From assembly GCF_004010195.1 (NCBI RefSeq), contig NC_057719.1:27261623-27293112 (forward strand): a stretch of 31,490 bases of DNA, written 5' to 3'. Under the pieces are notes generated by a model. It had not been told where the DNA came from, searched no databases, and saw only the letters and a list, made by a program, of their open reading frames with translations. The translations under genes were made by a program, and so were the position numbers. Shown piece after piece: positions 3,140-31,490 of this stretch. This DNA comes from Chiloscyllium plagiosum (taxonomy: Eukaryota). Numbering within the stretch: the first letter of the stretch is position 1; each line of letters opens with the position of its first letter.

Positions 3140-3900
3140 GGACCATAAGACCATAAGATATAGGAACAGAAATTAGCCCATTCAGCCCCATCAATTTTGC
3201 TCTGCCATTCGATCATGGCTGATAGGTTTCTCAATCGAGGGTGTGGTGCTGGAAAAGCACAGCAGGTCAGGCAGCATCCGAGGAGTGGGAGAATCGACAT
3301 TTTGGGCATAAGTCCTTCATCAGTCATTCTTGACTCTGATCTCCAACATCTGCAGTCCTCACTTTTTCCTCGTTGATAGGTTTCTCAACCCCATTCTCCT
3401 GTTTTCTCCCCATAACCCTTGATTGCTTTGATACTCAAGAACATACCTATCTCAGTCTTAAGTATACTCAATAACCTGGTCTCCACAGCCTTCTGTGGCA
3501 ATGAATTCCATACATTCAACACTCTCTGGCTGAAGACGTTTTTCCTTATCTCCACTCTAAGGTTGTGCCTTCCTGACTGAATCTCTCCTAACAATGGACA
3601 ACATCTACTCTGTCCAGACCATTCAATAGTCTGTATGTTTCAATTAGTTGCCCCTACATCCTTCTAAACTCCATCAAGTATAGACCAAGAGTCCTCAACC
3701 ATTGTTAACACACATGTTAAGCTTTCCATTCCTGGGACCATTTTTGTGAACTTCCTCTGAACATGCTTCAGGGCTAGTACATCCTTCCTGAGGACCCAAA
3801 ACTGCTCACAATACTCAAAATGTGGTCTGACCAGAGCCCTACAGACCCTCAGAGGTACATCCCTGCTTTTATACTCAGTCTTCTCCAAATAATGCCAATC
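3140..3900 (-). mobile_element. CR1 LINE 3' ORF2 and tail
   Basis: LVRPHFEYCEQFW; FSQRVLNVWNSLPQKAVE; (gaccataa)n tail. Confidence 0.9.
3235..3373. mobile_element. Penelope-derived short element nested in CR1, with a perfect 15-bp TSD
   Basis: tgataggtttctcaa at 3220-3234 and 3374-3388 flanks the gctggaaaagcacagcaggtcaggcagcatcc family repeat. Confidence 0.8.
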
Positions 3901-5619
3901 AACTCCCCATTGAAATCAGACAACCCTGGAATTTCCTGGCCAGTGCTAGTCACATCATTTCAGAACGAACAGTTGTCTACACCTCCAGCAAACCTGCTTT
4001 GTTGGAAGAATGTTACACAGACTTGGTGGCATCCAGCTGAATAGGAGGCCAAAGGCAGAGCACAAGTACCACACTTGACAACTGAAGGGTCAAAGCCATG
4101 TTCTACAATCTCCAAATGTGGCAAGTAGTCACCACATTGGATGTTCCTGCCCCACCCATTGCATCCATTGCACACATGTCACAGTATCTTCAAGAAGGCC
4201 ATGAAGAGGGGGATGAAAGGGGCAACCTGAAGCCCCAACTCTCTTTGACTTTTGCATCTTCTTCAAAGGTATCTCCAGACAGTGTGATGACACAAAAACC
4301 AGAACCAGCCCCAGACAAGATGGGAAGTCCAAATCAACAACTGAAGATCCTGAAACATCAACCAACCCTCAACGACTGAGGAACAGCCTGTACCAGCCAT
4401 ATTGAGCAGGTATTCCTAGCTCTTTCAGACAAACAGTTCAAATGCTGTGTTTAGGACCTATGCATAGGATGTAATAAATCCTTGACATTCATGGCAGAAG
4501 TAGGTAACTAATATAAATTTGAGACAGTTTACTCTAAGATTTCAAATTGTTTCCTGGAGAGTCCTGTGAAGAGATCGAGAGAGTTTAATTAAAGTTTCCA
4601 GTGGAGTCTGATAAATGTTGGTTTTCCTTAATAAAAAGTGTGCAATAAAATTGTGTTGCACCTTCCCCATCTTCTTTGTTTAACGTATCAAGTTGTGAGT
4701 CTAAGATAAAAACAGTTACTGCAAACTGGACAAGGTTAGTCAGGGTACACTTACCAACCTTTCACTGAACAACACAATTCATTTTTCTCCATAATGTTGG
4801 GACACAGTCCTTGAGTCCAAGTAATAATAAGAATAGCACTTGGTTACTTCAACATTATCAGGATCCCTTTGGAACCATATTAAGAGTATTATAATGGTTC
4901 GTTTATCTCAATACAAAGAAATATCATTGGCTATTCAGCTCAAATACAGTTAGCCAATGGATTATTACAATTTGATGTGGAGTTTTCTATTAATGTGGTA
5001 ACCATTTCAATGCACCACCCTCTGCAGGGAATCTGTGGCACTTGTGAGCAACCTATGATATTGAAATTTCCTGACAGACATATAGATTTTGTCAACACTG
5101 TGGCATTCCTGATGGTGGGACAGGAAGAGTGGTCCATTCTTTTGTTTTTTTTATTTCACATATAATTAATTTTAAATAATTTCAAACCAAAACCACATTT
5201 TGCCTACCATATAAATGAATAATGTGGTACATGAATTTCAATGCCAGTTGGATGCCAGATATGTAGACTGGCCTGTGCTAAAGATTACACCATAAACCTA
5301 TTTAAAATCATCAATCAGGCTTGCAATGGGAAGTATTTCCATGTGCCAGAAGCTATATATATTAATGTACAAGACATTAATTCACACATTCATTGCCACT
5401 TTTTAATGAAAATAGGGGGTCATGGAGACTGTCAATCTCTGCTGTATACTCGCAGCTACAACCTGATGATCAAGCTTCACCTGCCTGCTCTGGGAATGAA
5501 GGTTGAAAGGTCATTGTTCATGCTGTACCTCTACACTAATGATGGCACAATCAGTCAACAGCTGCTTCTCAAGCTATATAAATTGGTGTCCTTTTTGTCA
5601 AGTCTGTTTGAGTACAGAT

Positions 5620-6078
5620 GAAAAACTTTGACTTTTAGTCTCCTTTTAGCAATGTTTAAGTTCTGTACTCTCTTGCCTCCCTTTCTATCCTTCCTGTAGC
5701 ATTTATATCCCGGAACATTAAGCTGCCAGTCCTGCCCATCCCTGAGCCATGTTTCTATAATTGTTATGATATCCCAGTCCCATGTTCCTACCCATACCCT
5801 GAGTTCATCTGCCTTCCGTATTAGGCCCCTTGCATTGAAATAAATGCAGTTTAATTTATTAGTCCTACTTTGTCCCTGCCTACCCTGACTGTTTGACTCA
5901 CTTCTGTTCTCAACTGTACCAGTCTCAGATTGACCTCTTTCCTCACTATCTCCCCTGGGTCCCCCCCCTTACTAGTTTAAATCCTCCTGAGCAGCTCGAG
6001 CAAATCTCCCTGCCAGTATATTAGTCCCCTTCCAATTTAGGTGCAATCCATCATTCTTGTACAGGTCACTTCTATAAT
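5620..6078 (-). mobile_element. CR1 LINE: ORF1 esterase C-terminus and ORF2 APE endonuclease start
   Basis: DLYKNDGLHLNWKGTNILAGRFARAAQEDLN* followed by LNCIYFNARG..WDWDII..ETWLRDGQDWQLNVPGYKCYRKDR. Confidence 0.9.
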
Positions 6079-7900: not shown

Positions 7901-9009
7901 CATTGAGATGGAGTGCACTGCAGATGAGGTCCTTCACATGAAAGAGATGAGGGACAATACTTAAAGAGCAAAGCCAACTCTGTTAGATTCAAGCTGACTC
8001 ATCCATGGACTGAAGACTTTTTCTCCTTGCTCTTCCTGTCATCTGCGGCATGAATGTGTTTAAAGAGTAAATGGTTCAAAAAAATCTCAAATAGCAATTA
8101 AAACCCAACAGTGCAAGTTGTTTCCTACAATGTTTTATTTTAACTACACATTTCAATCACTATAAGTTGTTCATCTTTTCCTGTACACCTTCCAAAGGTC
8201 AGAGAAGAACATGTGATGGGGTGAATTTTTCCTTCTATATTGGGTCCCCAACATTTGCTTCAGATTGGAGTATCAACCACACACTATGTCAGTCAACTAA
8301 CATTGATATGTCTAGGAGCAGACGATTTAATAACTGTACAGTCCTTCTACCATCCATTTAAGAACACAAGTGAGCTCCCAAGGCTAGGGATTCAGCAGGA
8401 GGCTATCAAGTGATGACACATGAGGAGCAACAGTATCAGATGTCCACAATCAAGACCTCCTCTGAATATCTGATGAAATAACGTATCTAAAAACAGATTA
8501 CCAAAACCAGGCATAGCCATGATCATTGAAAAGCAATGTCAATCAGCAAATGGGTATGGGAGGCGGCAGGGGGCTCCCTGTCGAATAAAACATGATTCCA
8601 CACACCCCTCTGTTCTGCCTGGAGGCCCCTGATTTAGCTGGTCATGGTTCCGCTGCATCAGTGGTCTGCCCAGTAAATGCAAAGTTCTCATAGGCATGGA
8701 GGTTGGGCCTGAACAGGCTAATGCATCATTTTGTTTGTATCACTGTTTGTGATCATGCAGCCACTTCCAACCCAACCAGTCTTTTTAAAAATGCTCCAAC
8801 TGCCGCATTCTGCCAGCAATGCCAGCTGCCAGATGAAACTATGTGCCCAACCCACTTTCTGAAATATTTGCTGATGTGCCATCTCAATGTAACCAGCCTC
8901 TTTGTTAGAATCCTCATGCAAGGATTATTCAGCTAAAGAAAAGAAATATAATTAGGACAAATTTATTTTCTCTCCACCCAGCAGTGAGTAGGGAAGGCAA
9001 AGATTTAAA

Positions 9010-9385
9010 TGTGTTGCTGGAAAAGCGCAGCAGGTCAGGCAGCATCCAAGGAGCAGGAGAATCGACGTTTCGGACATGAATCCTTCTTCAGGAATGATGA
9101 AAGTGTGCCAAGCAGTCTAAGATAATCTGCAATCTTCTTCCTGACCTCTCCGCCCCCACCCCCACTCCGGCCTATCACCCACACCTTAACCTCCTTCTAC
9201 CTATCGCATTTCCAACACCCCTACCCCAAGTCCCTCCTCCCCACCTTTTATCTTAGCCCGCTTGGCACACTTTCCTCATTCCTGAAGAAGGGCTCATGCT
9301 CCTTGGATGCTGCCTGACCTGCTGCACTTTTCCAGCAACACACTTTCAGCTCTGATCTCCAGCATCTGCAGTCCTCACTTTCTCC
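9010..9385. mobile_element. Penelope-derived element with long inverted arms, carrying hammerhead motifs
   Basis: 9011-9125 is the approximate reverse complement of 9248-9341; minus-strand CUGAAGA-a-GGAUucauGUCC-GAAA-CG-UC at 9091-9064. Confidence 0.75.
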
Positions 9386-9833
9386 AAGGCAATGATTTCG
9401 GCAAGGTTTGTCTGCCTTCCCCACCCCACTGTGTTTCCCAGGTTGAAAATAGGACACTGCCATTTGCATATTCATTGCAAAATAACAAGTGATACTGAGC
9501 CAGAGAGAATGCCCAATGCAGGTAATCAGGGAGAAATTGCTTTTAGATCTACATTTCCAAAAGCACAGCAAGCACCTGAACCCTTGAGAACGAGGCTAAG
9601 ACTTTTCACATTTAATAGCGGAAATGGTTCCTTCTGTCCTTATTGTTTTGTTACTGAAGTTATGAAATCCTAATCTACCTTGGAGCTACTCAGTAAGACT
9701 GTGAGTTCAAAAACTTTTAAACATATCTCCAGGAGAATCGAATCTACTCTCAACTTAACTGTTACTATAGCAGCACATTGTTTTATACAGATTGGAGAAA
9801 AATTCACTTGCTAGGGTTCTGGCAGAATGATAA

Positions 9834-10238
9834 GTCATAGAGTCACAGAGATATACAGCATGGAAACTGACCCTTCGGTCCAACCCATCCATACCAACCA
9901 GATATCCCAATCTAGTCCCACCTGCCAGCACTTGGCACATACCCCTCCAATTCCTTCCTATTCATATACCCATCCAAATGCTTTTTAAATATTGCAATTG
10001 TACTAGCGTCCACCAGTTCCTCTAGCAGCTCATTCCATACACATCCCACCCACTGTGTGAAAAAGTTGCCCCTTAGGTTTCTTTTATATCTTTCCCATCT
10101 CACCCTAAACCTATGCCTTTTAGTTCTGGACTCCATGGCCCCAGGGAAAAGACTTTGTCTATTTATCCTATCCATGCCCCTCATAATTTTGTAAACCTCT
10201 ATACGGTCACCCCTCAGTCTCCGACACTCCAGGGAAAG
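9834..10238 (-). mobile_element. HER1/CR1 LINE 3' end
   Basis: RRLRGDRIEVYKIMRGMDR..RGNFFTQWVGCVWNEL..FKKHLDGYM. Confidence 0.9.
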
Positions 10239-10425
10239 CATGGCCAATTGACCTAACCTGCACATCTTTGGACTGCAGAAGGAAACCAGGGCACCCAAAA
10301 GAAAGCCATGCAGACATGGGGAGAATGTGCAAACTCCACACAGACAGTCACCCAAGGCTTGAATTGAACCGGGGTCACTAGTGCCATGAGGCAACAGTGC
10401 TAACCACTGAGCCAATGTACCAGCC
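10239..10425 (-). mobile_element. HE1-type tRNA-derived V-SINE (5' part)
   Basis: Reverse strand has the A-box tggctcagtggttagcac, the B-box ggttcaattc and the V-domain tgtgtggagtttgcacattctcccc. Confidence 0.9.
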
Positions 10426-10559
10426 CTAAAAGTGGTGATTTTTTTTTCCCATTATAGCAAAATGTAATCTGCAACTGCCATCTAATCTTAATTTTAATAT
10501 CTCCTGTACCACAAAGCTGAATGAAAGGTGACTGCAAAATTTCGGCCCTCAACCTTGCA

Positions 10560-10632
10560 AGCTCTATAACTCAATGGTTGGAGTGCTGGTCTTGTTCACC
10601 AGAAGCTGTGAGTTTGAGTCCCATTAGGGCCT
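10560..10632 (+). tRNA. tRNA-Thr(TGT) pseudogene
   Basis: 73-nt cloverleaf with D-stem ACTC/GAGT, anticodon stem CTGGT/ACCAG around CT-TGT-TC and acceptor AGCTCTA/TAGGGCC. The T-loop (TTTGAGT) and anticodon loop are mutated. Confidence 0.75.
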
Positions 10633-10788
10633 TTGAAGAGAACCATTCCTCATGTCATTTGAGATTAAAACGTCAAGGAGAAAAATATCAGGAAGTAAAG
10701 ATGTAAGGGGAAATTGCAACTCTTTCTACTTTTTTGACTCTTCCCCCAAAGACAAGGACTTTGCTGTAATATATAGATTTTTTAAAAT

Positions 10789-12849: not shown

Positions 12850-14125
12850 TGCCCCTATCCGAGCTAATGTGTGATTATGAGATTTTAGCTTGTGTTATAA
12901 CCTCTTGTGTGGCACTTTATCAAATGCCTTCTGGAAATCCAGATGTAGTACATCTACAGGATTCTCATCTTTAAAGAATTTTAGCAAATTAGTCATAAAA
13001 CTATGCTGATTTCAACGGTTGCCATTTCGACTTCCCAAATCTCCCGTTCTACTTTCTTAATAATGGATTCTAACAATTGCCAATCAACACATGTTAAACT
13101 AACTAGTCTACAGTTTCCTACTTACCGCCTCCCTACTTTTTGAATAAGGGTGTTACTTCTGTATTTTTTCAATCCACTGGAACCTTTCCAGAAGCCAGGG
13201 AATTTTGGAATGTTGTAACCAATGCATCCATTATCTCTGCTGACACTTCCTTTAAGACCTTAGGATGTAGGTCATCAAGTCCTGAGAACTTGTCTGCCTT
13301 TAATACCACTAGCTGGCTCAGTACCTTTTCCCTAGTGATCATGATTAAGTTCCCTCTTTTCTATAAACTGTGCATTCTTTAATACCACTGTGATGGCTTT
13401 AGTGTCCTCCACTGTGAAAACTGAGGCAAAATATTGATTCAGTGTTTCTGCCATTTCTATATTACCCACTATTACCTCCTCAGTCATGCCCTCTCAGAGA
13501 CCAACATTTAATTTAGCTACACTCTTCCTTTTTATATATTTATGGAAGCCTTGATTATCTGTTTTTATATTTTGCATGATTAGCTTTTACCAAATCCTCC
13601 AGCCTGCCACTGATCTTTGCAATAAGTTTTTGCACTTATGTTAGCTTTAACGTGCTTGCTGAGTCTTTGTTCCTCAATCTTTGTTCCTTTCTGGAGTATA
13701 TTTCAGTAAGGAGGAAATGAATATCTCTTTAAATTTATGCTGCTCTTTGTCAACTATTCTACCCTTTGTCTTTCCACCCAGTCCAAATTGAGGGCCAAAT
13801 CTGCCCTGATGCCCATGTAGTTACCTTTCTTTTACATAAGAACACGAGAATCAAGTTTTTTGGCCTCAAATTGAATTTGAAATTCGAGCATGCAATAATC
13901 ATTCTTCTCTAGGGGATCCTTTAGTATGAGCTCATTGATCAGTCTCACCTCATTACTCAATACTAAATCCAAAATAGCCTACTGACTGGTTGGTTCCCCA
14001 GTATATTGCTCCAAAATACACTCTAATAAACTCTGTGAACTCTTTCTCAAGGCTAACCGTGCAACTTGAGTAATCCAGTATTATTTTCATATTAAAATCA
14101 CCCATCACTATTGTTGCACCTATTG
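12850..14125 (-). mobile_element. CR1 LINE ORF2 (APE to RT N-terminus), degraded
   Basis: TIVMGDFN near 14100; PVDVLHLDFQKAFDKVPH near 12910-12960. Confidence 0.88.
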
Positions 14126-15200
14126 TCATAGACAGCAGGATAATGGCTTGCATGAATGGGTGTAATATTGGGTGCAATTTCCAGATGATGGTCTCATAAA
14201 AAGCTTCACCTCCAAATAAGTACACCTTGATAAATATTTCAACTCAATTCTCAATATTTCATCTTATAGAGCTTATTTCTGGTTGTCATTACACTTTTAC
14301 AAGAACTTCAACACAAATGGCTTGGAGTACAAATAATCTTAATATTGGCACAGACTCTGGAGACCAACACAACAGCTATAAAGGTGTTCCAATTTTTCTT
14401 CCTTAAATTTTTAATTATCGTCTCTCCTTGTGTTCCCAGCAAATGTTCAGCAGCTGCAAATAATTCAAAGACACTTTAGAAATTCTAATTGATGCAATTA
14501 TGAATATTATTTCATTCACTTCACATCTAAGGCTGCCAGTCACTAAGGTTCAAATTCTACGGAGCTAGATGAACCTGAAATATTAAGTGTAAATGATTAA
14601 ATTCAAAATCTAAATTTGGCTAAAATGCTACTTTCTGGTATAAAGAATATATAGACAACACAGAACACATTCTATGTAATTATTTTGATATGCATTTTTT
14701 AATCTTAAAGTACTTGTGATGCATATTATTTTAAAGCAATCCGGCTTAACATATGCAGCAAGGATGAAAATACGGGTGCAATTATTATATGAAGTGGCAA
14801 TTCTTTTAAACATCTTCAAATTACCATCTACCATAATAACCTCTGTTAAGGCTATTACATCATTAGCTACAACTCAAAGTTGTGACTGGTATAATAAATT
14901 GCCTACTTCTCCTAATAGGCTCCATTAACCTTTTTGCACATTTTTCAAATTGTTTTATGCAAATCAGGAACCTTGGCCTGAGATTTCATTAATCCCATTT
15001 GTGGAGAAAATATGTCTAAATGTGCATTGGTTTCGACGCTGATCTTGCCAAGAAGAACTTGAGCCAAAATCTCCTGAAAATTCATTGGCCTAAACCCAAT
15101 GACAAAGGGAAAATCATCACTACCAATGAACCAATGGTCTAGAGTAAAATGATGTGTGCCGTCTTTAATCTTGATGCCACTTTTGAATCTCCTATAAAGG
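14126..15200 (-). pseudogene. Unknown degraded ORF, homologous to the foamy post-env ORF at 21800-22230
   Basis: NW..IKIIC..ICVEVL..QPEISSIR..KVYL..HYPA aligns with IW..NKIIC..ICFEII.QTGLHSLR..KVYL..HYPA; shared 12-mer cattatcctgct. Confidence 0.65.
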
Positions 15201-15202
15201 TA

Positions 15203-15925
15203 TGAACAAGGAGTGGGATTAGGATATTGGTCTCTTAAATCTGTTCTATTTGATCTGAATGCAATCACAAATTCATATTCCCAAATACCCCTGATAAGTT
15301 TTAACCCCCTTGCTTAATAGAAACCTATCCACCTTTGCCTTGGAAATATTCAAGGAATCTGCTTCCACCATTTTTTCAGGAAAAGTGTTCCAAAAAACTC
15401 ACAACCCTCTGATATCATTTTATTTTCGCACATCTCTGTTTTCAATGGGCATCTCCTTTTTATTTAAAACAGCGTCAAAGAGTCATATAGTCTTTCAGCA
15501 TGGAAACAGACCCTTTGGTCCAACCAGTCCATACAGACCATCTTCCAAGCTAAACTAGTCCCACCTGCCTGTGTTTGGCCCCTATCCCTCCAAAACTTTC
15601 CTGTTTGTGAACTTATCCAAATTTCTTTTAAATGTTTTAACTGTACCTACACCTATCACTTTCTCTGGCAGTTTGTTGCGTACACAAATCACTCTCTGTG
15701 TAAGAATGTCTTTTTTAAAACTTTCACCTCTCACCTTAAAAATATGCCCCCTAGTTTTGAACTGCACCACCCTAGTGAAAAGACCTTGACTATTCACCTT
15801 ATCTGTGCCCCTCATGAATACATAAACCACTAAATTATCTGAAAAGAGAAATCATCCACTTCACATCCAACCTGTTAAACGCCCTCAGGACCATATATGT
15901 TTCAATAGAACAACAAATCTTCTCA
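15203..15925 (-). mobile_element. Nested CR1/HER1 LINE 3' fragments
   Basis: Inner copy ~15480-15825 (TRGHIFKVRGESFKKD..TFKRNLDKF) lies inside an older CR1 tail. Confidence 0.8.
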
Positions 15926-16119
15926 TCCGATATGGGCCTTAAGCCTACAACACTTGGATTTGACCCCCATTACCTAGCTGACCAGCTTAGGAGCTCTTTG
16001 CCCACTGTCATTTCTGTATCTGCAGTCTATTCATCTTCCACTTTCATGGTAAACAAGGATATGACCATTAGGGAAGCCAATGCAGCCTTTATAAATAGAA
16101 ATACTTGGAGAGCACTGAG

Positions 16120-16540
16120 ACTAATAACTTCAGCAGGGGCAGTCAGCGCCCTGGAGAGAAGCGGGGACAGCTAGCAGGGCAGGGCGAAACGAGGACCATC
16201 TCTGGCCCAGAGTGGAGTGAGGAGCTCCAATGAGCCGGGAGTGCAGATCACTACTGGAACAGGTGGAGCCTGACCAGCCCATGTGGAAGTCCTGATAGAA
16301 AGACCATAATGGCTATCCTTTTAGCAATATTTCTTGTTTTCCTAACATATAGTATATATATTTGTAACGTAGTGTAACTTTTTCTTTATTTTCTTTGTCC
16401 TCTGTACCTAAGATTGTACCTGGGAACTTTGTACCTAAGATGGCACTGTGTGTTGGTGATATTGTACACTTTTCACTGTACCCCTGTTCTTTTGTCATTT
16501 GAGTACACGTGTTAGTAAACCTAATTCTAATTCTAATTCA
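16120..16540 (+). mobile_element. Non-autonomous retroposon with an L2-like 3' tail
   Basis: ttttcactgtac...gagtacacgtg.tagtaaa followed by a (ctaatt)n tail. Confidence 0.5.
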
Positions 16541-16580
16541 TTTAAACAGAAGCTTTAGCAAGAAGAATTCAGTGGAGAAA

Positions 16581-19385
16581 ATGCTATTAAACCCTAAAAA
16601 GCCCTGGTACATTACTATCCAGTGGCTTTTGACTAGGCAGCATCTACAATATTACATACAAATTTATACATGCCTAGAGCTTGACCCAGTACAAGAAACC
16701 CCCTTGTTCATGTTATTTTGCCTGTGGGGTTGTGGAATAGTTGATGAAAGAAATAGGGTGGTGTAAAACAACAGTGCTCTAGTGTAAAACCAGTACAGCT
16801 CAAATAACCTCACCCATTACATACCAGTGATTGGGAAAGAAACACTGGAATGACACTTCCTCATGCATATCAATATTCTTGTTCCAAAGAAGAATCATTT
16901 GACTCAAAATGCTAACTATGTTTTTCTATCCACAAATGCTGCCTGAGTTTCTAAGGCATGTTCTGTTTCATTAGTATATTGCTGGACTAGATTAGCCCAA
17001 GACTTCAGAAGTAGCCCAGCTTTGCTTTCTTCACATTTAACTAATATACTCTCAGGTCTGGAGAACTGGATCCATACGTTAATGAGTTTTACATTTGACA
17101 AGATAATCCGGAAAAACATTTCAAGTAGTGTAGAAATTATCTTAGACTGACTAACATCAGTGGGATGTATCATTAACATTAAACTGAAGTCAGCCCTTAT
17201 AAGGAAGGAAGTTGACTTTCTGGGTTTGATAACATCTGGCACAGGCAGAGAGTTTACAAATAAATATAGAACTGAAGATGGGACAGATAGAATTTCCAAA
17301 AAACCATGAAGCCCTACTTTCAGCTTGACATCTTTTAAATTTTGAATGTTTTCTTATTCCAAGTTTTTCAGAAATTTCCCAGCTGCTTTATAAGGGAATA
17401 GGTAATGTCCCAACCACAGGTAATTTTGTGTTTACTGTGATGAATTATGGATAATTAAAACTATTTACTGTAGAGGTGCAAAAAGCAATTGTCTTCTAAC
17501 AATGGGATCCATAGACCATTTGGTCATTTATATCCGAATAGGATTCAAAGTAGCTGTAGATATCTTTTATAGCAAAGTAGGTTTTATTACTATTCAATTT
17601 CACCCACATAATTTCACCTCCAAAGAGCACAGAAAGTCATGATAGTGCCCTTAAATACATATTAAGGCAAGATCTCTATTAGGGAAAAAAAACCCTGAGT
17701 ATCTGGATTGAGAAGTCAGGCTTAACAAATCTCATGGACATGACAGTTCCTGAAAGAAAGGGCACCAACATCAGATCTGGCAGTGGGTAGTTCACAAATG
17801 ATGTCACCATTGTGCGGAAATATATAAAACCAGAAAAGTATTTAGAATGCTTAACACAGATGGAACACTCTAATCCAAAGATTGAACTAAACTTCAACAG
17901 GAAAAGTCTTTAAACCAATACACTGACGTTATGCAATGTAATGGTTCAAGGCAGAAGTTAGGACAAAAACAGATTATAAAACTATAGCTGGAGTCGGTAT
18001 AGTTAAAGAAGAATTTATAAAGAAAGTTTAATAAGAAAGACAATTTCAATTCATCTCAGCCCACAAAATACTGAAGTAGCAGCCTTAAAATAGGCACTTT
18101 CCGAAGTTATCTGTGCAGACAATTATTATTGCACTAACCACAAGAATCAAGACAGTCCCTCTGGGAAAGAAACCACTTTACAAAACACAAAGGAAGACCG
18201 ATGCACCGTGTAACTAACTGAAAAGTATAAAGCTCGTCTTTGGAAAATTAAATTGTCAGGTAATATATGTGAAAGGATATGAGAAGGGTGACATATTAGA
18301 AACAATGTTGGAAACCTGGTAGCAAAGGCAGCAGTAGCTAAATCCCAAAATGGTAAACCAATTCTAGAAGTTTCTGGAGCACTTACTGCAGAAAATATAG
18401 ATTCTGAGCTGTGACAATTTGAATATCTAAACAAATATCAATATTGCTGAAAACTAGAAGCAAGTTTCTGGTTGAACTGCCGATAGGGAAATGCCAGTAA
18501 CTTGCAAACCAGATGAACTGATTGCACAAGCTCATTCTGAGCAAGGAAATGTACTCTCAGGATGTCAACAAACTCTCTGTAACTTGACAAAATGTTATTG
18601 GTGGCCCAACACGCTGAAACATTGCAAGACTTGTTATGCAAATTGTACAGTCTGTAACCAGGTGAATAAAGTTTTTACTGTAAAAGCCCCCACAACCGTA
18701 GTCAAAAAAGACAGAACATTATGTAAGATTATAACTGATTTTATTGGGTTTTCAAATGCTTACAAAGATGTGCTCATTTGTGTTGACCATTGCATTAATT
18801 TGTCATAGTGTATCCCCAGCAAAGATATAAAAAAATGTACACTTAGTGGCACTCTTGGAATTGAATTAATTCCTGTTATTGAGATACCTGGAGTATTGCA
18901 CTCAGATAGATGGGATACCTTCATTTTTAAAGATTGTCAAAGAGAAAAAGATCTCCCTAGTGCGCAGCAGACTTAATCACTCTCAATCAGCAGGGACAGT
19001 AGAAAGGAAAAACAATGAGGGCAAGAAATGTCTAATCAAAATACTTTCAGGAAACCACAATAAGTGGGCCACGATACTACAAGAGGTACAGACAGCTTAA
19101 ATAATCAAACATTATTGTCAAGTGACACAGTGTCTCCTGTACTGCTACAATTGATTACTATTTGTTACACATATGAATATACCTTTCACACAAAATACTG
19201 TTCTAGAAAACGGAGCAATTAGATGAGCTAGATTAGCACAGCTACAATTTAAATAGGAGATTACTCAAATGTCCATGGAACTGTACAGAAACAGGAACAT
19301 TGAATACAGAAAGCATTATTTAATCAAGTCTGGTCACTTAACATAAAAGATCAGGTACAACTAAGTGGAACGTGCTTACTTAGAT
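16581..19385 (+). pseudogene. pol: Foamy virus pol (PR-RT-RNase H-IN), many stops and frameshifts
   Basis: PR-like VAFD*..; RT YCWTRLAQDFRSSPAL, PYVNEFYI*QDNPEKH (YVDD decayed), EVDFLGL, LLNF..FLIPSFSEISQLLY, TVPERKGTNIR; RH AGVGIV, EVAAL, ICADNYY, PLWERNHF..KGRPMH, YEKG, GNLVA; IN AH..YWWPN..CxxC, DFIG, VLHSD, HSQSAGTVERKN..LIKILSG..KW, NIPFTQ. These parallel prototype foamy virus Pol. Confidence 0.92.
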
Positions 19386-19389
19386 GCTC

Positions 19390-20252
19390 ATAGCATCCCT
19401 GCTATGCCTTGCTTTTTGTGTTTTACCCCACCACTCATCTTGGCTCTTTCTATTCTATTGAATAGAATAGAATAAGACAAAGAGAAAGACTGGGTGAGCT
19501 GAAAATAGCTGGCACTGCGGTTAGTGTTGGTGTAGTCAGTGCAAAGTTGATGAGGTACTCCGAGTGAGTGAGTGGACAACACAGTGGGCATGTAGAGTTG
19601 GTGGTGTGGGGAGTTGGAAAGGTGAGAATGGGTGAGGGAAGATGTTGCATGCTTTAATGAAAACAGTAGAGCAGAAGCTGTATTGGAAGATGGGTACAGT
19701 AGCAGAGATACAGTGAGTGTGAAATAGCATAGAAAGGATTGTCGCACTTAGCCTCGTGGACTGTAGAAGGTCAGTAACCTTCTTGCAGCACTACTGGCCA
19801 TTCCTCCAAACCACAGAAACAACACTGACCTGGGTGGCAACCTCAGACTAAGCTGGCAAGATCTGGTAGCCCAGTCTCCCCCATGTATCCTTGGGAAAAA
19901 GGACAGTCCTCCTCTACACCACCCTCTCCATCAAGACCTCCAGAACCCTCTTGCATGTAGGGATGCCCCTGTCCATCACGTCTGGGACAACTTTTCAGAC
20001 AAAGGGAAAATCAGGGCAACACTGGACTGGCAGCACTTGGCTTACTGCATTTTAGATATTGCACTGGCACTGGGAATCTTGGGATGTCCTGTCATATTCC
20101 TGTCTCCAGTGAGATGGAAGATAGGTTGAACAAACTCCAGAGAGGCACAGTACAGAGCTAATGAAGTGAGTTTCAGGCAATAGAGGAGGGAAAAACCTGC
20201 TTGAAACTCACCAAAGCTAACACTTAGCTGATTTCTGGTAAAATTTAACCCC
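19390..20252 (-). mobile_element. Harbinger/PIF DNA transposon remnant (Myb/SANT gene) inserted at the pol-env junction
   Basis: 19977-19752 translates LEVLMERVV*RRTVLFP..A*SEVATQVSVVS..RNGQ*CCKKVTDLLQSTR; intron-like CA/CT-rich stretch; then ERAKMSGG (compare ERxxTGGG); terminus-like ggggttaaattttacc ending at 20252. Confidence 0.75.
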
Positions 20253-21795
20253 ATGACGTTACTGGCAGTAATTCTAGCTATAATTCAACTAAGGGTATAG
20301 CATATTAATGCTCAGACAGAAGAGGGATTGTTAGAATTAGAGATCTTGAGGAACATGCAAAATAAGATACGAATATGGGAAAATAGATTGCTGACAAAAG
20401 CCCAATGCAAGTTAAAATATGCCATAAATACTCTGGGAAATGGGATATGGTGGAAGAGAAATCAACAATGACTAACTTTGACTGAAGGAGTATATAACTT
20501 GCTGATAGCTTCAAAGATTGATTCAGAAAATATCAATAATCTGAATTAAAACAGTATAAGACTCTCAAAAAGAAATCACAAATTATTTTGACACTCCACC
20601 TGTATATTTACCATAGGACTTTCCTCATAGACAGTGCAATGACAATTTAGTACTTTGCAATTTAATAATATACAGCAAGGCATGGGCACTATCTAAGACA
20701 AATAAAGGCTGTCAACAAGGGTCTGTATGGAATCGTTGCAAAAAAATCTAGCCCAATATATAATTGAAATATAGGTTAATCTTTGTACCTTTTTGCTTAT
20801 TATACCACTTTCAGTGTAACTATCAATGGATGTAAGGAAACATTTAGAGAATAGAAATATTCACAGAAACTTCTATGAAGCAGTTATATGTTGCACAATC
20901 ATATAATGTGACAGTTTTCTGTGCAACACAATATTACAAAGATAAAACTATAAAATCTTCGAATTCAGATGGTCAATTAGACATGGGTGCAGTTTTAGAG
21001 TACAGTATAAAAACAGAATGTAAGTTAAAAGAAGAATACCCACCAAAAACAAAACTTCAGACTGAATCAAATCCAAAAACCGAATATAATGTTTTCAAAG
21101 CCAATTTGCATAATGCACATCAGGTGTGTGTGATTCACTGTGTGAAGCTTTACACAGTTACAAACTTTCCTGCTATATAATGGGAGAACAAACATGGAAA
21201 TGGTGAAAGAATATAACTTATCATGCTGCTGGGAAAGGGAATATAAAGATGAGAAAGTGGTGAATCTGGGAAACACAATAATTAAAGATTTTATGAAAGG
21301 GTCATTGCACATTGTAACATTGACATACAAACGTACACACATCAAACTAAACTAAACATCGTGATCCCAGTAACACTATCAGATGCAAATGTTTATTCAC
21401 TTTATTATTTATGCAAGCTGCAAGGATGGAATTTGATTCAACAGAAATGAGAAAACCTGTAATAAAATAAAATAGGGCAGAAACATTAAATACTTTCACA
21501 ATAGACAAAAATACCGCTTCACCTTTTTATGAATAAATGAACATCAGTCTGCCACAGGCATGCTAGCTAATGTATGTGATATGACAACAATAAAAAAAAA
21601 CCATCTAAACAGTAAAGAAGTGTCAGTACTATAAATGCAATTGAAAGGTCAAGTAAGGCAATATTGCATTTTCCAACACGAAATGAAGATCGAGCTATGT
21701 TAAAAGCTTTAAGTCCTTGTTAATTGTTAAAAGCCCTGGAAATCTCAGTTAAAGAACAACTAAATGTGACAAATAGACAGATTAAATGGTCAGTT
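20253..21795 (+). pseudogene. env: Foamy virus env remnant (LP, SU and TM pieces with internal deletions)
   Basis: TLLAVILAIIQLRV* (leader-peptide hydrophobic segment), YYTTFSVTINGC (compare YYSFSLWEGDC), LDMGAVLEY..EYNVF, KVVNLG..HIVT (compare NVVNIG..THVT), SVKEQL (compare SIKEQI), in order downstream of IN. Confidence 0.6.
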
Positions 21796-21799
21796 AAAA

Positions 21800-22240
21800 T
21801 TGGGATTTGCTATCCTTTCACCTGGAAAAATACCATGGGAACTTAAATTAACAAAGGAAGATAAACATTATCAGATCATTTGTAAAATTACTAACTTCTG
21901 CTTTAATATATGGAGTTGAAAGGCATCAAAGTGTACATGAAACTATAGATGCAAAAGTATAGGTGTGTCATCAATTTGGATTCACAGTAAAATTATCATG
22001 CCAAACAGAGATTATGAAAATAAAATCATTTGCATGCAGTCCATGGAGCCAATTTGTTTTGAAATAATTACACAGCAAACAGGTTTACATTCTTTGAGAG
22101 CATTACAAGTAGCCAACACCAATACTAAAGTTTATTTACTATGATAGAAAACCTTTTCTGATAATGGTTTAAATTTGTTAGAGAAGTATCTCACTAGATT
22201 CTCTATTCCCAATTCATTATCCTGCTACAAGAATATACCT
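21800..22240 (+). pseudogene. Putative foamy accessory ORF (post-env, unknown protein)
   Basis: One frame for ~145 codons with 4 stops: LGFAILSPGKIPWELKLTKEDKHYQIICKIT..IWIHSKIIMPNRDYENKIICMQSMEPICFEIITQQTGLHSLRALQVANTNTKVYLL; its position matches bel/tas-type accessory regions. Confidence 0.55.
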
Positions 22241-22699
22241 ACCCTCTGAAGTTATTAGTATCATTTGTTATTTTCATTGGTTTAGAAATGGATAGCCAAC
22301 ACTTGACAATTTGTTAAGATTGTTCTCATGTTGTCAAAGGTTACATGGTAATCTGTAGAGCACATCATTTTGCTTACTTCTTTAACATATTTGTTAAATA
22401 TATACCTATAATGCAGAAATTCCCTTAAAACCAAAACATTCCCAGTCTTGTGCTTTCTCATTTAGTTTTAGGAAGAGGGAATTCTATTAGAACCTCCTGT
22501 TTCCTTACTTTTGCCAACACTTTTCCCCATCTATAATATATCCTGGGTAAATTATTCTTGCTTCCAAATTGAATTTTGGCTAAATTTATTACTAAGCTGG
22601 TGAACTCTAATTGCTTAAATGAGTTTTCTCTTTATCTGACATGCTCTTCCAGTATATTACTGTTTATCATATCATTTAACTAAACTACACAGTTATGAA

Positions 22700-22872
22700 G
22701 GCGCAAGAGAGTCAACGTTTTGGGCATAAGCCCTTCATCAGAAATGTTGATGAAGGGCTTATGTCTGGAGTGCTGACTCTCCTGCTCCTCAGATGCTGCC
22801 TGACCTGCTGTGCTTTTCCAGCGCCACACTTTTTGACTCTGATCTCCAGCATCTGCAGACCTCACTTTCTCC
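22700..22872. mobile_element. Penelope-derived short element, inverted (hairpin) arrangement
   Basis: cataagcccttcatca-gaaatgt-tgatgaagggcttatg palindrome plus the family 3' segment. Confidence 0.75.
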
Positions 22873-23569
22873 GACACAATTATGAACCTCAGCTAGAACT
22901 TGATGCATTACTAATGGAATATAAGTGAAGTGTTCTTTAATCAAAATGGCATTACTCAACATTAATATAATCTATTTGGTATAACAAAAGTGGATATTTC
23001 TTTAGCCCTTGATATCAAAGGCACTTGCCAATACCCCTCAATAGATCATTCTTAGAAAGGAACTAAGCTCTTTCAGCCATACCAATACAGTCCTTTAACT
23101 GTGAAATTGGATTTTTAAAAATCTGTCTTTGTGATTGCACTTACTTTTCTATAATCTGTACAGAGTTTGGTTAACCCAACTGGTTTAGACGCTAACACTA
23201 CCAGTGAACTCCACCTGCTTTGACTCGGTTCTCAGCATCTGAGAGTGTTACTGGATCAGCATGTCTAATTTTGTTTGATGTGTGTAAGTTTGTATGTCAA
23301 TGTTACTGTGGTACTATGGTCCTTTTTACTGGTTTCCCAGCATTTTTCAAATCCCAGTTTCTACCTGGGCTTATTTTCCTGGCGTCAACTGAAAAGGATA
23401 CCATTTATTGTCCTGACTTTCCCATGTCCACATCCTCTATAGTTAGGCATCCAGGCCTATCTCTACAGACTACTTTCTCAGCAGACTTACATGATCCTTC
23501 CATTGTCATTTCTTTAAATATGTCTCAGTATTATTGTGTTAGCTAGTTGAACTGTAGGAGGTTTTCTTT

Positions 23570-23890
23570 GAGACTGGAAGAGGACAATTGACATTTTGAG
23601 CATAAGCGCTTCATCAGGAATGTGGGGGGGCCCAAGGAGCTGAGAGGAAAATGGGAGTGGGGTGGAGCTGGGGAAATCGTAGCTGGGAATGTGATAAGCA
23701 GATCATGTTCCCAGCTACCTTACCCCCAGCTTCCCCTCCATCTCCCGCTTCCCCTTCCCCAACATTCCTGATGAAGAGTTTATGCCTGAAACGTTGACTC
23801 TTCTGTTCCTTGGATGCTGCCTGACCAGCTGTGCTTTTCCAGCACCACACTTTTTGACTCTGATTTCCAGCATCTGCCATTCTCACTTCC
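23570..23890. mobile_element. Penelope-derived short element with inverted hammerhead-like ends
   Basis: cttcatcaggaatgt ... acattcctgatgaagagtttatgcctgaaacgttga. Confidence 0.7.
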
Positions 23891-24641
23891 TTCTTGCTTT
23901 GAGAACTGTCTACGTCTTCTTCCACTTCACTTTTATTGTCTCTGTCAACTTTCATTACTCTCAACACCTAACACATTTACTCATTCTTATCTTCTTTTCT
24001 ATGATAGTATCTTTCCACACGTTTATGTGACAGAATTGAAGTTTCTTCTCATATTCAAAGTATTTATCAGATAAGCCATTTCATTAACCCTTTTCATTAC
24101 TTTGTATAAACCACTGAATTTCACTTTCAGAGATTCACCTTGCAAAGGCAACAATATCAATACTCCATCTCCCACTTGAAACATTCTAACCGTACTTGTT
24201 TACCTCCTCACTCTTTCATTTTTGCTTGTAAAACTTCCAAATGTGCTATCTTAGATGAACTTGTGAGTCTTTTCCTTCCACCAGATATTAATGACATATA
24301 AGACATGTTTTACAGAACTGCACTATGTCTTAATGATGTCTTGGCCGTGTAAAATATCAGTGCTTGAGTTTTTTGCATTCTTACATGTCCTGCAAAATTT
24401 CAAATGTTATTTGTAGTATCTCCTTACAATATCTGGGTTTCACCACGTTTTGATGAATAATCGTCCATTCTCCATCCACAAGCCTGTGAGGATGTCTCCA
24501 CTTTCTCTTCAGAACTCTGTTTTTAATATAATAACACTTTGGAGCTTCTCAGCTTTAATGTGAGCTGTCAGTGCTAACTTCCTTAACTCTGGATCTGCTT
24601 TCAGAGCCATGATTAACAAACACGTGCCAAGCATTTCTTTT

Positions 24642-31359: not shown

Positions 31360-31490
31360 TCACAGCAATTCAGGCAGCATCCGAGGACAGGCAAAATCCA
31401 AGGACAGGCAAAATCGACGTTTCTGGCAAAAGCCCTTCATCAGGAATAAAGGCAGAGAGCCTGAAGCGTGGAGAGATAAGCTAGAGGAGG
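31360..31490 (-). mobile_element. Penelope-derived element with a near-intact hammerhead motif (runs off the window)
   Basis: Minus strand attcCTGATGAaGGGCttttGCCaGAAACGTCgat. Confidence 0.7.

Follow-up and report, generated by a model that had tools for sequence, protein, structure and literature searches.

The window analysed here is a 31,490-nucleotide stretch of the Chiloscyllium plagiosum genome (G000:C10:27261623-27293112, in a genome of 3.56 Gb), and it contains a decayed retroviral element. We place a probability of about 90% on the reading that this element is a non-functional foamy virus remnant, composed of part of pol and likely env, which likely entered the germ line of the ancestor of three species, probably of a shark lineage, ~100 million years ago or earlier, with four or more copies arising from what was likely a brief burst. 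A foamy virus would have reached the germ cells of the ancestor of these related species, and its D,D,E integrase would have inserted it repeatedly over a brief span of time. These copies would then have been inherited and have decayed neutrally by substitutions and small insertions and deletions. Host retroposons would have landed in and beside the window copy, and deletions would have stripped it of both long terminal repeats (LTRs), gag, protease and the end of env. The decay of the window copy is directly visible, and we infer the order of the events. An earlier reading made from the sequence alone (the sequence-only reading) had called the element an old, decayed endogenous foamy virus useful for dating. 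This call was upheld by the placement of the element in the foamy clade and by orthologues under two other species labels.

Foamy affinity of the pol remnant

The element has no long reading frame, and its longest piece is a 110-codon frame at 18476-18808; the sequence-only reading had described it as hidden from the open reading frame track. Pol was aligned in a frameshift-tolerant manner against a profile built from 14 foamy-type Pol proteins, a check which that reading had proposed. Profile positions 277-1034 were matched without a jump at 16977-19208 with 265.6 bits. The mean score of 100 local shuffles was 19.2 and their maximum 25.5, and the reverse strand gave 22.8. The reconstructed Pol has 705 codons with 15 frame changes and 10 stops, and in this alignment the order reverse transcriptase (RT), connection, RNase H and integrase (IN) runs unbroken in one pol. 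All of the five motifs named in the sequence-only reading were found where it had put them: YCWTR at 16977, PERK at 17749, the RNase H W..N.F at 18162, YWWPN at 18596 and GTVERKN at 18993. The zinc-binding part of the integrase gave a Pfam match to Integrase_H2C2 (E 1.1e-5) and retains three of its four zinc ligands, and the core retains D, D and E at 18737, 18905 and 19002. Two of the four RNase H catalytic positions checked are retained, and the RT catalytic motif at 17075-17086 is changed at both acidic positions. Because the RT active site is broken and Pol carries these frame changes and stops, the element makes no working protein today. Nothing suggests its co-option.

A search of 1.84 billion proteins with one natural frame, stops written as X, returned feline foamy virus Pol (E 1.1e-13) and nothing else. 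The RT piece, searched against the PDB, matched the foamy protease-RT with E 1.7e-5 as against E ~1 for the RT of murine leukaemia virus, and the only match of the IN piece was the prototype foamy integrase. A word-based protein search with the IN piece gave no match. To limit bias, each of 34 references was given its own best frameshift-tolerant alignment. The seven named foamy Pols scored 186.5-214, P0029 221.5, P0031 156.5 and the partial frog protein P0032 81, and the 24 non-foamy references (class III, gamma, class II, gypsy and own-genome rows) scored 18.5-69. For IN, the abundant class III family of the same genome reached 62.5-68.5 as against 95.5-120 for the named foamy INs. The motifs GxVERKN and SP[AG]LF are confined to foamy-clade rows among the 34 references. 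P0029 and P0031 are themselves of note. The former (Logan) is an intact 1156-residue foamy Pol, 52% identical to that of feline foamy virus, on a 10.3 kb contig. The latter (Logan), encoded on an 11 kb contig, is a Gag-Pol fusion of 1687 residues that branches basal to the foamy clade; the viral contigs searched contained no relative of it.

Phylogenetic trees were calculated with 32 rows for RT, 31 for IN and 30 for the joined alignment; the frog row and two gypsy rows lacked an RT cut, and two partial IN rows were omitted. The group labels of the viral-contig rows are our own assumed assignments, made from motifs and genome lengths. The element fell in the foamy clade with support of 100/99 for RT, 99/98 for IN, 100/99 for the joined alignment and 97/96 under a mixture model. 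RT thus did not group with Gypsy or ERV-L/class III elements, the outcome which the sequence-only reading had set against its own call. Placement with Gypsy, with ERV-L/class III or with a snakehead-like row was rejected, as the scores are at most 69 for these and at least 186 for the foamy viruses, and an approximately unbiased (AU) test with 18 rows discarded the snakehead-like pairing (p-AU 4e-5). The same test did not reject alternative positions inside the foamy clade (p 0.17-0.38). Since the trees put the element with tetrapod-type foamy viruses and its place within the clade is compatible with several positions, the "deep foamy lineage" of the sequence-only reading was not sustained. 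In a mixture-model tree with two other copies from the same genome, the three copies formed a clade (95/92) with a stem of 0.59 and sat within a group (92/94) that also comprises P0029, the frog protein and the mammalian foamy viruses but leaves out P0031. Because this stem is only 0.59, most of the element's long branch is decay.

One alternative is a fish-type foamy-like endogenous retrovirus (FLERV) of the teleost or ghostshark lineage, basal to the true foamy viruses and with an env unrelated to foamy Env. We consider it unlikely. The AU tests leave room for it, since a position outside the tetrapod-type group and one with P0031 were not rejected (p 0.38 and 0.29). However, in free trees the element joined a group with P0029, the frog protein and mammalian foamy viruses that left out P0031 (IN 99/92, joined 96/91, mixture 92/94, reduced set 89/86), and the scores against mammalian foamy viruses and P0029 are higher than that against P0031.

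It is highly improbable that the element is a lokiretrovirus or belongs to some other class III lineage outside the foamy viruses, with an RNase H that is merely foamy-like. In PMC7947760, the lokiretrovirus RNase H groups with that of foamy viruses and the lokiretrovirus Env has an N-terminal signal peptide; the env-like region described below also opens with a hydrophobic stretch, and our trees hold no lokiretrovirus row. On the other hand, the same paper puts lokiretrovirus RT outside all retroviruses and lokiretrovirus IN with CGIN1, whereas both domains fall in the foamy clade here. The restriction of GxVERKN and SP[AG]LF to foamy-clade rows is also against a lokiretrovirus, and no fusion-glycoprotein Pfam match (PF00523) was obtained.

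The class III-type family mentioned above is an abundant, younger endogenous retrovirus (ERV) family within the same genome (L012-L030, L184, L188-L199) and lies outside the foamy grouping in the trees. Foamy queries match it first, at 37-39% identity. It could therefore be mislabelled as foamy-like in quick screens.

The env-like region and the lost parts

The env-like region opens with a hydrophobic stretch, and its first 20 bases overlap a piece of host repeat at ~20185-20255. A further copy of the element on C20 matches pol (17294-19036, 61%) and 20235-22086 (62%) in the same order and on the same strand. Therefore, the env-like stretch belongs to the virus. The sequence-only reading had let env run to 22300, which is too far, because the homology to the C20 copy stops at 22086 and host repeat occupies ~22145-22400. 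Positions ~114-505 of the foamy Env surface subunit gave a collinear, frameshift-aware match of 26-34 bits, with shuffles as high in 0-3 of 200, 1-3 of 300 and 1-4 of 500. In the C20 copy, the transmembrane subunit was matched with 25.4 bits (3 of 500 shuffles as high), and the surface subunit was non-significant (108 of 500). A VYSLY..CKL motif at 21382-21420, chosen after the fact, is kept in both env copies and also occurs in simian foamy Env near position 505. No membrane anchor was recovered in the env-like region. Taken as a whole, the element likely has a foamy-type Env. This bears on the FLERV alternative as well. That alternative would fit the marginal Env match and the teleost FLERV env, which according to PMC5210030 is without detectable similarity to foamy Env. 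It fits less well with the surface-subunit match, which is weak but collinear (0-4 of 200-500 shuffles as high), and with the VYSLY..CKL motif in both copies.

An inverted duplicate of env 21296-21386 is located 1.9 kb downstream, at 23235..23325 (-), with 77 of 90 positions alike. A doubtful extension pairs 23235-23569 with 21047-21386 (137 of 222 alike).

Upstream of the recognisable RT, the evidence is largely negative. The sequence-only reading had described an ordered chain of protease, RT, RNase H, IN and env. Its RT, RNase H and IN, with the connection domain, and the env-like stretch do stand in order, and its protease does not hold up. Pol positions 1-276, including protease, scored at shuffle level in 16541-16976 and in 13000-16976 (61 and 191 of 200 shuffles as high). 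An anchored test upstream gave 59-82 of 100 shuffles as high, and a separate alignment with the nested repeat excluded gave 72 of 300. That reading had also started Pol at its own ATG at 16581. Only 132 codons separate this ATG from YCWTRL (~103 if the nested repeat is discounted), whereas foamy Pol has 276 residues there, so Pol does not start here; at profile position 1 the peptide that follows the ATG reaches -8.4 bits. By eye the peptide can be matched either as the end of protease or as the RT fingers, and neither assignment is significant. RT positions 208-238 gave a weak signal of 24.2 bits, reached by none of 40 shuffles, at 4 kb upstream of the C20 copy.

A search for gag in the window, in 10 kb on each side and upstream of three other copies was negative, and the window gave no LTR pair. 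Its direct repeats, and those near the C20 copy, were considered as LTRs and set aside, as they resemble short interspersed elements (SINEs). No lysine primer site was found within 3 mismatches of the pattern used; its first 10 bases are present in all of the five foamy genomes checked. Neither accessory genes nor a 3' LTR were found at the 3' side of the remnant, which is bounded by host repeat. Both ends of the remnant are cut by host repeats. The parts of the remnant, the repeats around it and its other copies are listed in Table 1.

Table 1. Coordinates of the remnant, of the host repeats in and beside it (window positions) and of the further copies in the genome
Feature	Coordinates	Strand	Basis
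Host retroposon with short TAATTC-type tandem tail, 5' bound of remnant, start approximate	16184..16540	.	Sequence; high read depth in bin 16184-16497
Unassigned stretch containing ATG 16581, could be the decayed first half of RT	16541..16880	+	Spacing
Short high-copy host repeat nested directly before recognisable RT	16881..16968	.	38 of the 40 own-genome matches listed cover only about this stretch
RT palm and thumb (foamy Pol positions 277-427)	16977..17436	+	Profile alignment
Connection (tether) domain with PERK	17439..17920	+	Profile alignment
RNase H and linker	17921..18447	+	Profile alignment
Integrase, zinc-binding part and core	18449..19208	+	Profile alignment, Pfam Integrase_H2C2
Probable integrase C-terminal part	19209..19467	+	Common with C38 copy to ~19350; foamy-profile match non-significant
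Nested host repeats at pol-env junction (19468-19950 high-copy, second piece ~20185-20255)	19468..20255	.	Own-genome search, at least 1845 first-look candidates; read depth
Env-like region, 3' end lost	20235..22086	+	62% identity to C20 copy over 1985 columns
Host repeat, 3' bound of remnant	~22145..22400	.	Own-genome matches
C20 copy (L063-L065)	G000:C20:14340663-14348597		Own-genome search
C38 copy (L005-L006)	C38:12.4434-12.4442 Mb		Own-genome search
C6 copy (L007-L008)	C6:35.1008-35.1018 Mb		Own-genome search

Copies, orthologues and age

Own-genome searches revealed at least three other copies of this foamy family, all decayed, on C20, C38 and C6. The C20 copy retains more of the env transmembrane subunit, and ~4.2 kb separates its pol from its env. 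Five copy pairs share enough codons for comparison, with p-distances of 0.31-0.34 and corrected distances of 0.40-0.45 changes per site. Their differences at the first, second and third codon positions are 0.33/0.29/0.31, 0.27/0.29/0.27, 0.29/0.30/0.31, 0.31/0.31/0.27 and 0.37/0.30/0.33. A third-position excess is thus absent in all five pairs (chi-square p 0.67-1). In contrast, all of the four pairs of living foamy pol genes treated with the same procedure showed a strong excess (p-distance 0.23-0.34; p < 1e-19). This flat pattern suggests that the copies came from near-identical parents and diverged as dead DNA after integration. The flanks of the window copy and of the C20 copy align no better than shuffles, which favours separate integrations.

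Alternatively, the four copies might be old host duplications of a single integration, or descend from distinct viruses that infected at different times, so that their divergence would date no burst. We regard this as distinctly unlikely. No LTRs or target-site duplications survive to demonstrate separate integrations, and each copy retains a different part of the genome of the virus, as such an origin would allow. Nevertheless, duplication is difficult to reconcile with flanks at shuffle level beside pol and env at 61-62%, and distinct viruses should have left the third-position excess that is absent. Even with duplication, the divergence would remain a minimum age.

No better-kept foamy copy was found among the best own-genome matches to the RT and IN domains of P0029. 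These queries led to at least 150 places each, which are class III, epsilon- or gypsy-like with at most 39-42% identity. A gamma/epsilon-like ERV pol, broken by an assembly gap, lies ~20 kb from the C38 foamy fragment (L185, G000:C38:12416000-12425999).

A search for the orthologous locus in related species had been suggested by the sequence-only reading, and the insertion was indeed found under two other labels. Public runs under three organism labels contain the stretch (18 of 23 rows, 7 studies). When contigs were mapped to 14300-23700, organism B was represented by a single 6263-base contig spanning 16457-22732, with 189 letters that differ, and organism C by five contigs that overlap and together span 15785-22684, where 281 of 7054 letters differ. 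Because the contigs of B and C cross both ends of the remnant and the nested repeats, they are orthologues and not cross-matches to the 61% copies. The three species labels that share the insertion differ by 3-4%. Contigs of B and C also span the inverted env duplicate at 23235-23569. A raw-read run of the species itself (X19, ~4 in 100 reads sampled) gave a depth of ~0-1 over unique sequence.

The divergence between copies is 13-15 times that between A and B and 10-11 times that between A and C. Judged from these ratios, the insertion would be ~10-14 times older than the split of the three species sharing it. In years, the copy divergence corresponds to 91-102 million at 2.2e-9 per year, 200-225 million at 1e-9 and 400-450 million at 0.5e-9. 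The first is a mammalian rate quoted in PMC4422223, and the last was applied to catshark in PMC10699275. Taken literally, the rates of 0.5e-9 (PMC10699275) or 2.2e-10 (PMC4422223) would lead to 400 million years or far more, and such dates were rejected. Since sharks are reported to be slow-evolving (PMC10587355), 91-102 million years is likely a floor. The element is therefore likely to be unusually old, roughly 100 million years or more. A bolder proposal is that a true tetrapod-type foamy virus with foamy Env entered a shark ancestor >150-200 million years ago, and that the four copies are the oldest foamy insertions on record, datable by synteny across shark families. We offer it tentatively and consider it doubtful.

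Several observations weigh against a foamy virus remnant of this age. Named rows for coelacanth, salamander, fish, shark and lokiretrovirus are absent from the trees, where the window row is long (1.2-1.8); its frame breaks were set with the foamy profile. The features that define foamy viruses, namely a separate Pol start, a Gag free of zinc fingers, accessory genes and the lysine primer site, fall in the lost parts. For env, the sequence-only reading had staked its claim on a hit to the foamy Env profile, and the result is divided: Pfam Foamy_virus_ENV (PF03408) found no match in the env-like region, and the frameshift-aware match to foamy Env is weak. The region also scores negative in hmmsearch, has no Atlas match and is non-significant in an ungapped Env test (90 and 41 of 500 shuffles as high). 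Among five non-foamy Env controls one also scored above all its 50 shuffles, and a reversed Env profile reached 21-24 bits, which was counted against a foamy-type Env. The age depends on a rate that was assumed and on alignments of about 60-68% identity. From the density of stop codons, ~0.12 changes per site per copy are estimated as against 0.2 from the copy pairs; this estimate is biased downwards, since the alignment avoids stops.

Comparison with known elements and further features of the window

Compared with the exogenous Spumaretrovirinae (feline, simian, bovine and equine; P0002, P0017-P0028), the element shares the order and spacing of the Pol domains over 277-1034, the integrase H..CC and D,D,E positions, GxVERKN and an A-rich composition, with a best identity of 34-39%. 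It differs from them in being dead and without LTRs; gag, protease and accessory genes were not found in it, and its Env similarity is marginal.

The kind of element described here has already been published. Judging by its title, a 2023 study by Wang, Chen and Cui (J Virol 97:e01816-22) is said to report an endogenous virus from cartilaginous fish that is a true foamy virus and stands at the root of those of vertebrates. Their elements reportedly come from sharks and rays and retain the canonical motifs of foamy viruses. As far as a title can be compared, theirs names the root of vertebrate foamy viruses, whereas our trees allow more than one position inside the foamy clade. This locus may be among their elements. 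No description of it was found in the literature searched, and the full text of that study lay outside the search. Thus, the locus is a further element of a published kind, possibly one already listed.

Foamy-like ERVs were already reported from cartilaginous fishes, as the sequence-only reading had stated. In the ghostshark CmiFLERV, PMC5512871 describes only pol as detected and a basal position with fish FLERVs. For the catshark ERV-Spuma.0-Sca, PMC10699275 reports a grouping with FLERVs of ray-finned fish and an age of ~36 million years. The present element is likewise a foamy-like ERV of a cartilaginous fish, but it has an env-like region, leans towards the tetrapod type and is likely older; going by the descriptions, it is set apart from both. 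The gecko ERV-Spuma-Ppi/-Gja is an orthologous endogenous foamy virus of >96 million years that was called the oldest in 2019 (PMC6669660). It resembles the present element in providing an orthologous insertion as an age anchor. In contrast, the gecko loci are intact, selected env genes, while the shark element has decayed neutrally, and its age comes from copy divergence and not from a dated host split.

The age of an orthologous insertion that is fixed has a hard lower bound, and the value of the present element lies in its being a datable, very old, orthologous insertion. Deep-time ages of foamy viruses mostly rest on assumed co-divergence with their hosts. As the decay of this element is ~10-14 times the divergence of the three species, an orthologue is expected in much more distant relatives. 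If it is found there, its age would equal or surpass that of the gecko anchor, 96 million years (PMC6669660). It could then be tested whether true foamy viruses in cartilaginous fish preceded those of land vertebrates or were passed back from them, as has been proposed for the coelacanth virus (PMC6955096).

The window has other features besides the remnant. A very high-copy SINE/LINE-like repeat (LINE, long interspersed element) with internal inverted arms occurs at 22698-22872, 23576-23894, 3241-3380, 8998-9396 and 31361-31447. LINE fragments at 5555-5968, 9912-10451 and ~13000-13400 are presumably CR1/L2-like. A tRNA-Thr(TGT)-like sequence, either a gene or a pseudogene, lies between SINE copies at 10559-10633 (+) and was recognised by ARAGORN and Rfam (46 bits).

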